Source of the DNA: Gammaproteobacteria bacterium
Lineage (GTDB): Bacteria > Pseudomonadota > Gammaproteobacteria > Burkholderiales > Rhodocyclaceae
Assembly: GCA_018819515.1 (NCBI GenBank)
Contig: JAHJPX010000003.1
Location: 56,588 to 120,587, forward strand
Reading direction: 5' to 3'
Length of the DNA stretch: 64,000 nt
A program made the position numbers and the translations under genes. The notes beneath the pieces were generated by a model. That model saw nothing but the letters and a program-made list of their open reading frames with translations. It had not been told where the DNA came from and did no database searches. Numbering within the stretch: the first letter of the stretch is position 1; each line of letters opens with the position of its first letter. Shown here piece by piece: positions 5,005-52,289 of the stretch.

Positions 5005-7311
5005 CTATCGTTTCAGTTTGGCGAATGCACTGGCCATGGCGCCGGCTGGTTCGGCTTCGCGACGCGGTGCCGGTCTGGAATTCTGCCTGCTCGGCGTACC
5101 GCCACGGCTGACTTTTGGCTCGGACTTCGGCGTCGGCGTGTCGCCCATGCGCATCGATAGTGCGATGCGCTTGCGCGCCACGTCGACTTCCAGCACCTTC
5201 ACTTTCACCAGGTCGCCCGCCTTGACCACCGAGTGCGGGTCCTTGACGAACTTGTCGGCCAGTGCCGAGACATGGACGAGGCCGTCCTGATGCACGCCGA
5301 TGTCGATGAAGGCGCCGAAGTTGGTGACGTTGGTGACCACGCCCTCCAGCATCATGCCCGGTTCCAGGTCCTTCAGGCTCTCGATGCCTTCGCAGAAGCT
5401 GGCGGTCTTGAATTCGGGGCGCGGGTCGCGGCCAGGCTTGTCCAGTTCGCGCAGGATGTCCTGCACGGTGGGCAGGCCGAATTTCTCGTCGGTGTATTTC
5501 GCTGGATCGACCTTGCCCGGCGTACCGCCATGGCTGACTTTTGCAATGTCGGCGAGGATGCGTGCCGCGACCGGATAGGCCTCCGGGTGCACCGCCGAGG
5601 CGTCGAGCGGGTTGTCGCCGCCGACGATGCGCAGGAAGCCCGCCGCCTGCTCGAAGGTCTTGTCGCCCAGGCGCGGCACCGCTTTCAATTGTTCGCGGCT
5701 CTTGAAGGCGCCATGCTGGTCGCGGTAGGCGACGATGTTGGCGGCGAGCGTGCTGTTGAGGCCGGAGATGCGGGTCAGCAGCGGCACCGAGGCCATGTTC
5801 ACATCCACGCCCACCGAGTTCACGCAATCTTCCACCACGGCGTCGAGGCTCTTCGCCAGCTTGCCCTGGTTGAGGTCGTGCTGGTACTGGCCGACGCCGA
5901 TGCTCTTCGGGTCAATCTTCACCAGTTCGGCGAGCGGATCCTGCAGGCGGCGGGCGATGGACACCGCACCGCGCAACGACACATCGAGTTCCGGGAACTC
6001 GCGTGCCGCCAGTTCCGACGCCGAATACACCGAGGCACCGGCTTCGGAGACCATCACCTTGGTCAGCTTCAGTTCCGGATGGCGCTTCATGAGATCGGCG
6101 GCCAGCTTGTCGGTTTCACGGCTGGCGGTGCCGTTGCCGATGGCGATCAGGTCGACCTCGTGCTTTTGGCAGAGGTGGCGCAGGGCAGCCAGCGAGCCTT
6201 CCCAGTCGCGGCGCGGTTCATGCGGATACAACGTGGCCGTATCGAGCAGCTTGCCGGTGCGGTCGACCACCGCGACCTTGCAGCCGGTGCGAATACCCGG
6301 ATCGAGGCCGAGCGTGATCCGCGCGCCCGCTGGCGCGGCCAGCAGCAGGTCGTGCAGGTTGCGGGCGAAGACGCGGATCGCCTCTTCTTCGGCGCGCTCG
6401 CGCAGGCCGTTCATAAGCTCCAGCTCGAGGTGCAGCGAGAGCTTGACCAGCCAGGTCCAGCGCGCGGTTTCCAGCAGCCACTTGTCGGCGGCGCGGCCCT
6501 GATCCTTGAGGCGGAAGCGGTCGGCGACCATCGCGATGCACGGCGAGCTTTCCGGTGGATCGCGCAGTTCCTGTTCGGTCTTGATCGAGAGGCGCAGGAA
6601 ATCCTCCTGCCGGCCGCGCAACAGCGCCAGCGCGCGGTGCGAGGGAATGGTGGCGATCTTCTCGCGGAAGTCGAACCAGTCGCGGAATTTGGCGCCTTCG
6701 GTTTCCTTGCCCTCGGCCACGGTCGAGACGATCAGCGCGTTTTCGTTGAGGTAGCTGCGCATTCTTTCGAGCAGCACGGCATCTTCGGCAAAACGTTCCA
6801 TCAGGATCTGCCGCGCGCCGTCGAGCGCCGCCTTGACGTCGGGGACGTGCTTCTCGGGCGGCTCGGTCGCCGGGTTCACGTACTTCGCCGCCTCGGTTTC
6901 CGGAACCAGCGTCGGGTCGTTGAACAGCGCGTCGGCCAGTGGTTCCAGTCCGGCTTCGCGGGCGATCTGCGCCTTGGTGCGGCGCTTCGGCTTGTACGGC
7001 AGGTAAAGATCTTCGAGCAACTGCTTGGTTTCGGCGTTCTCGATGTCGTTCTTCAGTTCCGGCGTCAGCTTGCCCTGTTCCTCGATTGAAACGAGCACCG
7101 TGGCGCGCCGGTCTTCCAGTTCGCGCAGGTAACCGAATCGTTCTTCCAGCAGGCGCAACTGGGTATCGTCCAGGCTGCCGGTGACTTCCTTGCGGTAGCG
7201 GGCGATGAACGGCACCGTGGCGCCTTCGTTGAGCAACTGGACGGTAGCAAAGACCTGCTGGGGACGGACGCCGATTTCTTCGGCGATACGATGTTCTATC
7301 GGAGGCAGCAT
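5005..7311 (-). CDS. tex: Transcription accessory protein Tex (S1 RNA-binding domain)
   Basis: 768-aa ORF. N-terminus [34 protein letters not shown], YqgF-like centre and C-terminal S1 domain ([26 protein letters not shown]). Confidence 0.9.
5093..5116 (+). repeat. 24-nt motif copy, 0 mismatches
   Basis: GGCGTACCGCCACGGCTGACTTTT. Inside tex (minus-strand gene), read as KVSRGGTP in the C-terminal tail. Confidence 0.95.
5519..5542 (+). repeat. 24-nt motif copy, 1 mismatch
   Basis: GGCGTACCGCCATGGCTGACTTTT. Inside tex, read as KVSHGGTP. Confidence 0.9.
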
Positions 7312-7387
7312 GGAAATAAAGGGGTGAATCGATGCGGGGCGCGAACCTTACCTCAGCCCGAGGCGACCGACAAGGCTTGACGAATCG

Positions 7388-50711: not shown

Positions 50712-50744
50712 ATAAGGAAGGCAAACAACTCGCGGAGAACGAAA

Positions 50745-52289
50745 GTGGACCTCCCGGAAATTGCCTCACAGGCACCCTCGACCCCAACGAGCCCACAGGG
50801 CGGTTGCAGCGCCGGTAGCTGCGGTTCGACGTCCGGACAGATGTCCGGGCTGTCGGAGGAAATCCGCCGCAAGGTGGAAGATCACCCCTGCTATTCCGAG
50901 CAGGCCCACCACCACTTCGCGCGCATGCACGCGGCGGTGGCGCCGGCTTGCAATATCCAGTGCCATTACTGCAACCGCAAGTACGACTGCGCCAACGAGT
51001 CGCGGCCGGGTGTGGTGTCGGAACTGCTGACACCCGAACAGGCGGTGAAAAAGACGCTGGCCGTCGCCGCCGCCATTCCGCAGATGTCGGTGCTCGGCAT
51101 CGCCGGCCCCGGCGACCCCCTCGCCAACCCCGAGCGCACCTTCGCGACCTTCCGCGAACTGGCGCAGAAGGCGCCGGACATCAAGCTCTGCGTGTCGACC
51201 AACGGTCTCGCCCTGCCCGACAGCGTCGAGGAGCTGGCCAAGCACAACATCGACCACGTCACCATCACCATCAACTGTGTCGACCCCGAAGTCGGCGCCA
51301 AGATCTATCCCTGGATCTTCTGGAAGGGCGAGCGCATCCGCGGCATCGAGGCGGCGCGCATCCTCATCGAGCAGCAGCAGAAGGGCCTGGAGATGCTGGT
51401 GGCGCGCGGCATCCTGGTCAAGGTCAATTCCGTGATGATCCCGGGCGTGAACGACGAGCACCTCAAGGAGGTGTCGAAGGTCGTCAAGGCCAAGGGCGCC
51501 TTCCTGCACAACGTCATGCCGCTGATCGCCGAAGCCGAGCACGGCACCTTCTACGGCATCATGGGCCAGCGCAGTCCCAGCCCGGCCGAGCTGAAGAACC
51601 TGCAGGACACCTGCGAAGGCGACATGAACATGATGCGCCACTGCCGCCAGTGCCGCGCCGACGCGGTTGGCCTGCTGGGCGAGGATCGCGGTGCCGAGTT
51701 CACCATGGACAAGGTCGAGGCGATGGAAATGGACGACGCCTTCCTCGCCGAGGCGATGGCGAAGCGCAAGGCGCTGCGCGAGCAGATCGCGGCGGAGAAC
51801 GAGGCCAAAAAGGCCAAGGCTCACGCGCCGCAGCCGGCTGGCGTCGCCGTAGTCACCATACATCGGCGTACCGCCACGGCTGACTTTTCGCAAGGCCGCC
51901 CTGTGCTGATGGCCGTGGCCGCGAAGAACGGCATGGTCGCCGAGCACTTCGGCCACGCCCGCGAATTCCTGGTCTACGAAGCAACCGCCGCCGGTGCCAA
52001 GCTGATCGGACACCGCAAGACCGACCTCTACTGCGACGGCGGCGACACCTGCGGCGACGGGGAATCCGTACTCGCGAAAACTATCAAGGCGCTGGAAGGC
52101 TGCGAAGCGGTGCTGTGCTCCAAGATCGGCTACGAACCCTGGGGCGAACTGGAGGCGGCGGGCATCCGCCCGAACGGCGAGCATGCCATGGAAGCCGTCG
52201 AGGATGCCGTGATGGCCGTCTGGCACGAAATGCTGGCAGCGGGTCTGCTGAATCCGAAAACGACTGCCGAAGCCAAGAGGTGTGCGTAA
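50745..52289 (+). CDS. nifB: FeMo-cofactor biosynthesis radical-SAM protein NifB (with NifX-like C-terminal domain)
   Basis: 514-aa ORF. Has HPCYSEQAHHHFARMHAAVAPACNIQCHYCNRKYDCANESRPGV and a C-terminal NifX/NafY-like domain. A perfect motif copy sits in the interdomain linker. Confidence 0.95.
   Translation: MDLPEIASQAPSTPTSPQGGCSAGSCGSTSGQMSGLSEEIRRKVEDHPCYSEQAHHHFARMHAAVAPACNIQCHYCNRKYDCANESRPGVVSELLTPEQAVKKTLAVAAAIPQMSVLGIAGPGDPLANPERTFATFRELAQKAPDIKLCVSTNGLALPDSVEELAKHNIDHVTITINCVDPEVGAKIYPWIFWKGERIRGIEAARILIEQQQKGLEMLVARGILVKVNSVMIPGVNDEHLKEVSKVVKAKGAFLHNVMPLIAEAEHGTFYGIMGQRSPSPAELKNLQDTCEGDMNMMRHCRQCRADAVGLLGEDRGAEFTMDKVEAMEMDDAFLAEAMAKRKALREQIAAENEAKKAKAHAPQPAGVAVVTIHRRTATADFSQGRPVLMAVAAKNGMVAEHFGHAREFLVYEATAAGAKLIGHRKTDLYCDGGDTCGDGESVLAKTIKALEGCEAVLCSKIGYEPWGELEAAGIRPNGEHAMEAVEDAVMAVWHEMLAAGLLNPKTTAEAKRCA
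51865..51888 (+). repeat. 24-nt motif copy, 0 mismatches
   Basis: In the nifB linker between the radical-SAM and NifX-like domains, read as RRTATADFS. Confidence 0.95.

Follow-up and report, generated by a model that had tools for sequence, protein, structure and literature searches.

The DNA uptake sequence (DUS) of the Neisseriaceae is a 12-bp word, AT-GCCGTCTGAA, with dialects, and is bound by the minor pilin ComP, and the uptake signal sequence (USS) of the Pasteurellaceae consists of a 9-bp core, AAGTGCGGT or ACAAGCGGT, with flanking AT tracts and occurs in Hin and Apl types. Both families are host-associated. Sequence-specific DNA uptake is known from these two families only (October 2025 preprint, bioRxiv 10.1101/2025.10.24.684340). 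Studies of DUS and USS have reported a bias in reading frame, placement at poorly conserved sites, a share of 34-65% in open reading frames (ORFs), enrichment at terminators and the existence of dialects (PMC3630211; PMC2817400; bioRxiv 10.1101/2025.10.24.684340). The present analysis concerns a 64,000-nucleotide stretch of an assembly assigned to the Rhodocyclaceae (GCA_018819515.1, contig JAHJPX010000003.1, positions 56,588 to 120,587; the window, in what follows, is the whole of this stretch) and a 24-bp word that is scattered through the genes of an uncultured nitrogen-fixing member of the Rhodocyclaceae and of its relatives. At about even odds, this word acts as an uptake sequence of the type known from Neisseria and Haemophilus.

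The word in this genome has the form GGCG-NNN-CGCC-ACGGCTGACTTTT (dialect D1; full 24-mer GGCGTACCGCCACGGCTGACTTTT). The window holds 18-19 copies in all, with about 0 expected by chance. The full 24-mer has 18 copies in it at up to five mismatches, against none in shuffles, the 20-mer GTACCGCCACGGCTGACTTT has 16 matches at up to three mismatches, against 0.01 expected, and the most repeated 12-mers of the window (13 times) are those of the word. Its 3' part, ACGGCTGACTTTT, is near-invariant among the aligned window copies, the best-conserved stretch being ACGGCTGACTTT(T), and the triplet between GGCG and CGCC is variable (TAC, TGT, TCC, TGC, TAT or CTA). The information content is about 35 bits. 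The alignment showed no conservation of the flanks beyond the 24 bp, bar a weak G at -2 and a pyrimidine at -1, and no terminal repeats or target duplications were found around the aligned D1 copies. The window form also holds a small palindrome, GYGGCG-N3-CGCCAC, with a 4-6-bp stem and the variable positions as its loop. Density was 0.1-0.3 copies/kb in independently fetched syntenic loci; densities in loci L001-L074 are biased upward, because these loci were picked for holding an exact copy. Rfam searches of the whole window (gathering threshold) and of positions 20800-21300 (E<=1) gave no match, which rules out a known RNA as the identity of the word, and a literature search for its 12-mers found no paper describing it.

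Genes were called with our own codon-usage model and the hosts were checked by Pfam. The host genes encode Tex, a DAO-family (DadA-like) oxidase, an EamA transporter, ImuA, ImuB (for which there was no Pfam match), DnaE2, NifZ, NifM, RnfE, RnfG, NifA and NifB. An earlier sequence-only reading of this DNA had listed coordinates, frames and host genes for the intragenic copies, and all of these were reproduced. A census of reading frames was made on the window and 77 related loci, which together comprise 548 kb (91% coding) and hold 131 copies. Within genes lay 71 copies (54%): 20 were read in frame f0 (GV[PS]PRLTF), 16 in f2 (RTATADF), 21 in r1 (KVSRG[GD]TP) and 14 in r2 (KSAVAxR), with none in r0, the Trp-containing frame (KSQPWRYA), and none in f1, which contains TGA. 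The census shows the word to be a DNA-level signal rather than a peptide, because identical DNA is translated in four different frames, on either strand, and is found outside genes too. Equal use of the five open frames was rejected (chi-square 20.1, p=4.9e-4). The sequence-only reading had anticipated non-uniform usage and had found only a subset of frames in use, namely three; the restriction stands, with r0 and the TGA frame empty, and the number three proved to be a small-sample result, since four of the six frames are used family-wide. It had also described two reverse frames as never used, which holds for both in the window and for r0 throughout the family, but r2 (KSAVAVR) occurs 14 times in the relatives, in solid genes. 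From the window alone the restriction is marginal, with 12 internal copies and two of five open frames empty (p ~0.02, own estimate). The statement that the TGA frame serves only as a real stop was borne out, with two such stops in the window and no internal copy in 548 kb; in an earlier pass of the census the TGA of the word was a real stop codon six times. Counts for the second dialect, D2, were 7, 4, 8 and 5 in f0, f2, r1 and r2, and zero in both r0 and f1. The loop triplet tracks the frame, TGT being predominant in f0 and r1 and TAC in f2, so that the rare GTA codon is avoided.

Placement within the proteins is restricted as well. Ten of the 12 internal window copies lie outside Pfam envelopes, which cover ~60% of host residues (binomial p ~0.003, own calculation). 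The earlier suggestion that copies sit in structurally permissive locations holds for most of them, but not for the dnaE2 copy at 21380, which is on a conserved segment. In a 120-sequence Tex alignment the two Tex sites fell at the 7.6th and 0th conservation percentile among 8-residue windows. AlphaFold models of Tex and DnaE2, of moderate quality (mean pLDDT, the predicted local distance difference test, 64.6 and 61.7), have most sites in coil with pLDDT <50, namely Tex 593-599 and 720-756 and DnaE2 103-107 and 810-835; predicted order is higher around the RYATADF site of DnaE2. The C-terminal tail location given for the Tex copies is correct for one of them; the other, at 5519, is inside the HHH_9 domain, yet in a variable loop whose length differs among homologues. 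What had been called a C-terminal extension of RnfE is present in the RnfE of Azotobacter vinelandii too, and is thus a tail and not an extension.

Non-coding DNA, ~9% of the total, holds 46% of the copies, and 44 of these 60 lie at, or within 100 nt past, the 3' end of a gene (23 sense, 21 antisense); a further 15 copies are at other intergenic positions and one overlaps a gene 5' end. Copies are nearly all single and not doublets. In one locus, L062, two overlapping inverted copies form a perfect hairpin with a 17-bp stem flanked by A and T runs, which is terminator-like. Single copies are no canonical terminators: one copy passes a lenient terminator scan, the total of which is not above that of shuffles. 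A sense-strand RNA element or terminator was suggested by the window, where six of seven gene-end copies are sense, and was rejected on the family-wide count of 23 sense to 21 antisense. A replication-polar motif of the type of Chi or KOPS (FtsK orienting polar sequences) was similarly rejected, as the 14:2 preference for the G-rich strand in the window was not reproduced across 107 copies of other loci (60:47 relative to GC skew, not significant). Phage origin was also considered; no genuine copies were found in 2.9 million IMG/VR viral contigs, and the nine 17-mer matches, all without the 5' half, are attributed to chance.

The Tex protein of the window matches one from an uncultured metagenome-assembled genome at 100% identity. 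The nearest cultured relatives by Tex, at ~80% amino-acid identity, are Denitratisoma, Georgfuchsia, Sterolibacterium and Sulfuritalea. Exact D1 copies occur in at least 11 assemblies of metagenome-assembled genomes (MAGs) labelled by their depositors as Rhodocyclaceae, Rhodocyclales, Betaproteobacteria or Burkholderiales, and a scan for GGCG-NNN-CGCCACGGCTGACTTTT with one genome per species matched at least 74 stretches. Metagenome loci anchored on NifB contained no D1 word. Several of them (74-83% NifB identity) hold D2, GCCGTCCCGCCAGCGCCGACTTTT (consensus GCCGTCCCGCCAGCGCCGACTTT(T/C)), which is unlike D1 at five of the 24 positions, at the same NifB linker but inverted relative to D1, where it is read QKSALAGR. 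There are seven D2 copies in 19.9 kb of L091, five in 21.5 kb of L092, four each in 21.4 kb of L127 and 22 kb of L167, and three in 13 kb of L172, a Sulfuritalea MAG; the D2 carriers represent a sister lineage. In the Tex tail D1 (KVSRGGTP) and D2 (KVGAGRTA) share both site and orientation, and Denitratisoma Tex has unrelated sequence there that aligns gap-free; neither dialect was found in 22 kb each of Denitratisoma oestradiolicum and Georgfuchsia toluolica. The species represented by L075 has yet another 5' half, AGCCGTRCYGCC. It is clear from these comparisons that the word changes in concert within lineages. As neither D2 nor the L075 species has the palindrome of the window form, it is the 3' half that forms the conserved core; the hairpin is not conserved, which rules it out as an essential feature.

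Two very short contigs that carry an exact copy were assigned by binning to unrelated taxa, L038 (511 bp) to Anaerolineae and L052 (587 bp) to Sideroxydans. They share a sample series with the Rhodocyclaceae MAG F1F2.bin.19, and mis-binning is probable; the word could be usable as a binning marker. The Denitratisoma oestradiolicum locus (L169, LR778301) carries a large array of clustered regularly interspaced short palindromic repeats at ~18900-22300, 6-10 kb downstream of tex, in which a repeat 12-mer occurs 57 times.

Comparison of orthologous sites shows how copies arise. In DnaE2 the RYATAxxLR of distant homologues has become RYATADFLR at aa 936, and an ancestral RRRAEKGAY has become RRRAAKADF, or RRRTTTADF in some relatives, at aa 101, in both cases by substitution with length unchanged. 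Relatives at 90-95% NifB identity hold equal-length degenerate copies with 5-6 mismatches in the NifB linker, where the window copy is perfect, and the D1, D2 and word-less states of the Tex tail align without gaps. Point substitution of pre-adapted sequence can create copies, and the substitution-only sites in DnaE2, NifB and Tex rule out a pure insertion model for the word. The sequence-only reading had suggested an analysis of alignment gaps; gaps accompany the word at Tex aa 590 and DnaE2 aa 831, and none do at the two substitution sites of DnaE2 (aa 101 and aa 936), in the NifB linker or in the Tex tail. Copies also decay at orthologous sites, with 3-6 mismatches and some losses.

A DNA-level, concerted and substitution-built word that is filtered by frame and position requires a molecular drive favouring the DNA together with purifying selection on proteins, and to our knowledge the only well-documented drive of such a kind is the biased uptake of own-kind DNA in natural transformation. 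The best explanation would be an uptake-sequence-like molecular drive filtered by protein tolerance, to which a probability of about 0.5 is given; we infer that the drive itself is DNA uptake by a specific receptor. The sequence-only reading had likewise proposed a DNA-level signal driven into coding sequence and filtered by protein tolerance, and the frames, dialects, substitution origins and placement all support this. Under such a mechanism a sequence-specific drive acting on DNA would keep the word at roughly 0.1-0.3 copies/kb, the most likely drive being preferential uptake of own-kind DNA in natural transformation. Mutations that improve the match would be taken up and recombined more often, so that matches would spread, and selection on proteins would purge copies with a harmful encoded peptide. 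The survivors would be those in four tolerable small-residue frames (GV[PS]PRLTF, RTATADF, KVSRGGT and KSAVAxR), placed in loops, linkers or tails or on already similar segments; the stop-codon frame would persist only as a real stop and the Trp-containing frame would be eliminated. Genes for a type IV pilin and for GspH/FimT-like minor pilins are present in word-carrying genomes, which is a prerequisite for competence only.

Two MAGs have a copy of the word (KSAVAQR) inside a GspH/FimT-like minor pilin gene (L036 5439-5927; L051 6302-6790, minus strand), which may be a coincidence. In Legionella, minor pilins of the FimT type are known to bind DNA in the course of transformation.

The word resembles DUS in being far above chance, on both strands, genic as well as intergenic, and strongly enriched in non-coding DNA and near gene ends. 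Further features in common are inverted pairs that form terminator-like hairpins, lineage-specific dialects in one family of Betaproteobacteria, a bias in reading frame and a location at poorly conserved residues. The share in ORFs is 34.5% in N. meningitidis and 65% in H. influenzae (PMC2817400), and the 54% of the word falls between the two. Unlike DUS, it has 24 bp rather than 12, an unrelated sequence and a different family as carrier, and it hosts fixed-position insertions of 24, 69 and 72 bp, which have not been described for DUS. With USS it shares an extended motif (~30 bp in USS) in which a strong core is joined by weaker positions, a pair of related types that divide between sister lineages, copies at equivalent sites of different species, several of which have changed by point mutation, and a frame bias tied to codon and peptide tolerance; it differs in the high-GC host, the different phylum-level context and the indels that accompany some copies. 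HIP1 of cyanobacteria (GCGATCGC) is likewise an over-represented, lineage-conserved intragenic word of uncertain cause, but is an 8-bp perfect palindrome, whereas the present word is 24 bp long, asymmetric and enriched at gene ends. The pattern of frames and placement is a known consequence of uptake sequences; the novelty lies in the word itself, in its carriers, length and dialects, and in the homing inserts. It is tentatively suggested, at somewhat short of an even chance, that uncultured, partly nitrogen-fixing Rhodocyclaceae possess a third, independently evolved DUS family, unusually long at 24 bp, with at least two dialects (D1 GGCGTACCGCCACGGCTGACTTTT, D2 GCCGTCCCGCCAGCGCCGACTTTT) swapped at orthologous sites and with hairpin-built elements of 24-72 bp homing to fixed positions of the word even in essential-type genes.

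Small inserts are found inside the word. A 48-bp long form consists of the word plus a fixed 24-bp insert, TCCCACGGGAATTCCCTCCGGTCA, between GTAC and CGCC, with a central palindrome, GGGAATTCCC. It occurs in L075 (3771-3794 and the 8241-8264 region), in L076 (4793-4816 and Tex aa 590) and in L071 (~2145, minus strand), and is absent from the window; long and short forms alternate between species at the EamA, dadA-stop and Tex aa 590 sites. Another is a 72-bp insert, which in the window is in dnaE2 (20995-21066, minus strand), exactly between GAC and TTTT of the word. The same element, with 92% identity, is in the dnaE2 of L170 (3316-3387), at the GAC/TTT junction of another copy and in the opposite orientation relative to the gene, and L041 (350-385) belongs to this set of loci. 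An unrelated 69-bp insert is at the same GAC/TTT junction in L171 (10328-10396). The 69-72-bp inserts are all in frame. The 72-bp element is predicted to fold into successive mini-hairpins closed by GAA loops, GCGAAGC among them (-27.5 kcal/mol, z = -2.75), has no Rfam match, and looks like a tiny mobile element targeting the word. Rickettsia palindromic elements (RPEs) offer a parallel, since they also provide in-frame, repeat-derived peptides in conserved proteins at surface or loop positions, and the 72-bp dnaE2 insert fits them well; RPEs, however, are discrete insertions of 100-150 bp, whereas the 24-bp word often arises without length change. A discrete-insertion feature of the kind of RPEs or miniature inverted-repeat transposable elements thus fits only the nested 72-bp insert and not the word. 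In L170 the dnaE2 gene is preceded (1-2970) by an IS91-type transposase, two phage-type integrases and a HigB/HTH (helix-turn-helix) toxin-antitoxin pair, which replace imuA-imuB, so that this dnaE2 is in a mobile context.

A number of observations weigh against uptake as the drive. The fixed-position inserts just described, both the 48-bp long form and those of 69-72 bp, are more usual for transposase targets that resemble repetitive extragenic palindromic (REP) sequences, and REPs serve as targets of some insertion sequences. Relatives that have no word at Tex aa 590 are 18 bp shorter there, and the presence of the word at this site is patchy on a neighbour-joining tree of Tex; at DnaE2 aa 831 the word, again patchy, is accompanied by nine extra bp; with indels and small insertions at some copies, substitution is not the sole process. 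No ComP-like receptor was identified among the fetched loci, which held only a generic pilin and the GspH/FimT-like minor pilins, and a literature search returned no report of natural competence or uptake sequences in Rhodocyclaceae, Rhodocyclales or related genera. At 24 bp the word is also long in comparison with DUS (12 bp) and the USS core (9 bp). Lastly, the densest cluster of the window (three copies in 1.3 kb) is in a low-GC segment that a close relative, L088, is without, and a cluster in newly acquired DNA is unexpected under an uptake model, unless L088 lost the segment.

A rival explanation is a REP-like or miniature mobile element, in which a transposase (e.g. of the HUH type of the REP-associated tyrosine transposases, RAYT, acting on single-stranded hairpins) moves the word or a hairpin-bearing parent and tolerated in-frame insertions survive. 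The window form has the small palindrome with its variable loop, variants are species-specific as in the REP and REPIN (REP doublet) systems associated with RAYT, and the word is a fixed-position target for small elements, with the long form alternating with the short at the same sites and the mini-hairpin inserts at the GAC/TTT junction; indels accompany the word at Tex aa 590 and DnaE2 aa 831, the word is patchy on the tree, and variable gene content adjoins intergenic copies. REPs, however, are extragenic, have longer palindromes and are usually inverted doublets, whereas more than half of the copies of the word are intragenic, nearly all are single and the palindrome is missing from D2 and from the L075 species. 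Insertion moreover cannot explain several of the copies, because these were gained with no length change on peptides that were already word-like. Terminal repeats, target duplications and conserved flanks are lacking, and no transposase was linked to the word, a genome-wide search for one not having been made. Such an element is therefore considered unlikely as the source of the word. Homogenisation without DNA uptake, by short-patch gene conversion or templated repair that improves partial matches in a dispersed repeat, would account for the substitution-only improvement of pre-adapted sites, for the concerted dialect change at orthologous sites and for the repeated switching between short and long forms. 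It explains the enrichment at 3' ends and in non-coding DNA no better than uptake does, a length of 24 bp does not exceed what RecA-dependent conversion usually needs as a minimum, and we know of no process that homogenises ~1000 such short dispersed words; it is regarded as improbable.

An array of binding sites for a chromosomal protein (nucleoid-organising, segregation or repair-guiding), each site being selected for its function, would suit a word that is long and rich in information and conserved across species at orthologous sites, and the dialects could follow a co-evolving DNA-binding protein. The absence of an orientation bias relative to GC skew across loci excludes a system like KOPS or Chi, the free decay of copies at orthologous sites argues against function at each site, Denitratisoma and Georgfuchsia are without the word in the 22 kb covered of each, and no architectural system with ~1000 mainly intragenic 24-bp sites is known to us, so that an array of this kind appears very improbable. 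Selection of a short linear peptide in many proteins was suggested by the nonapeptide RRTATADFS that NifB and RnfE have in common and that, as the sequence-only reading stated, is encoded by identical DNA. The shared peptide comes from identical codons, however, and orthologues without the word have different, unrelated residues at those sites and not the same peptide in divergent codons, which the sequence-only reading had named as the mark of protein-level conservation; with four unrelated peptides read from the same DNA on either strand, and copies also between genes, the census refutes a peptide motif, and it can practically be dismissed.

Should uptake be the drive, a third family with an uptake signal would have been found, in free-living environmental Betaproteobacteria, and self-recognition in transformation would be more widespread than thought. 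The long word, its four frames and its presence in nitrogen-fixation and repair genes would then offer a natural comparison for the co-evolution of uptake word and proteome, and a sequence tag for tracking recombination in this group and for binning its MAGs. Even without an uptake drive, a concerted 24-bp word that is written into proteins calls for explanation.

The individual window copies, all of D1 and on the plus strand unless stated, begin with two that are antisense in tex and read in r1, one perfect (5093..5116; KVSRGGTP) in the C-terminal tail past the S1 domain and one with a single mismatch (5519..5542; KVSHGGTP) in the HHH_9 loop. The same frame, to which the sequence-only reading had assigned tex, rnfG and dnaE2 copies, is used antisense in rnfG (40088..40111, two mismatches; KVSRGDTP), ahead of the FMN_bind domain, where the window RnfG is three residues longer than that of A. 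vinelandii, and in dnaE2 (20991..21086, minus strand; VSRGGTP), in coil with pLDDT <50. This last copy had been placed at 21067 and is in fact split, its order being GGCGTACCGCCACGGCTGAC (21086-21067), the 72-bp hairpin-rich insert (21066-20995) and TTTT (20994-20991). The f2 copies agree with the earlier assignment throughout. They are sense in the EamA transporter gene (14468..14491, one mismatch; RPATADF), in the loop between the two EamA repeats, a site that in three relatives also has the word, in its short or its 48-bp long form; in dnaE2 at a helix end and low-confidence loop (18878..18901, two mismatches; RAAKADF) and on the conserved RYATAxxLR segment (21380..21403, three mismatches; RYATADF); and, both perfect and reading RRTATADFS, in rnfE (39047..39070, minus strand), in the C-terminal tail beyond the last membrane segment, and in nifB (51865..51888), in the linker that joins the radical-SAM part to the NifX-like domain. 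A degenerate copy with five mismatches and an intact 3' core (32656..32679) provides the nifZ stop TGA (32672-32674) and the start of nifM, which reads MTADF from an internal ATG (32664-32666). Frame f0 is used sense in nifA (47259..47282, two mismatches; GVSPRLTF), in the stretch that links the AAA+ lid to the HTH_8 domain, with a degenerate copy at this site in L088. It is also used in imuB (17733..17756; GELRRLTF), by a degenerate copy with five mismatches and an intact 3' core that is present in L076 too; the very degenerate match in imuA (16799..16822), which had been listed with these in f0, has seven mismatches and is near chance level.

The lexA-imuA-imuB-dnaE2 SOS mutagenesis cassette (16029-21705) contains five copies or remnants, a high local density in DNA-repair genes in what is a small sample. 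DUS have been found to be biased towards genome-maintenance genes, and the density in the SOS cassette is reminiscent of that bias. Ahead of this cassette a copy with three mismatches (15942..15965, minus strand) is intergenic with a 2-nt overlap with the azlD stop, and the azlD-lexA gap is variable, with extra ORFs in L076 and L077 and copies close by. A perfect copy (11036..11059) supplies with its TGA the stop of the DAO/dadA gene (11052-11054), and its last T's are in the TAA stop of the convergent DUF2863 gene. Gene content beside this convergent DUF2863/DAO junction varies between loci, with nothing extra in the window, L076 and L077, one extra gene in L075 (7212-8257), and a PAPS-reductase and APS-kinase/GTPase pair in L168 (4477-8132).

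The remaining window copies are intergenic. One with two mismatches (62872..62895, minus strand) is 4 nt past the stop of a gene for a major facilitator superfamily transporter (62899-63999, minus strand). The other three belong to a 2.4-kb segment (55949-58345) that follows a draG-like (ADP_ribosyl_GH) gene and is absent from the syntenic relative L088; it consists of small ORFs, partly of low GC, for which there were no Pfam matches. A copy with two mismatches (55970..55993) is at its left edge, 8 nt past the draG-like stop, another with one mismatch (56569..56592) is past a small low-GC ORF (56105-56515), and the third, with two mismatches (57176..57199), is past a small ORF ending at 57111. 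All three are near-perfect and each is right after an ORF, which gives the segment a cassette-like layout.

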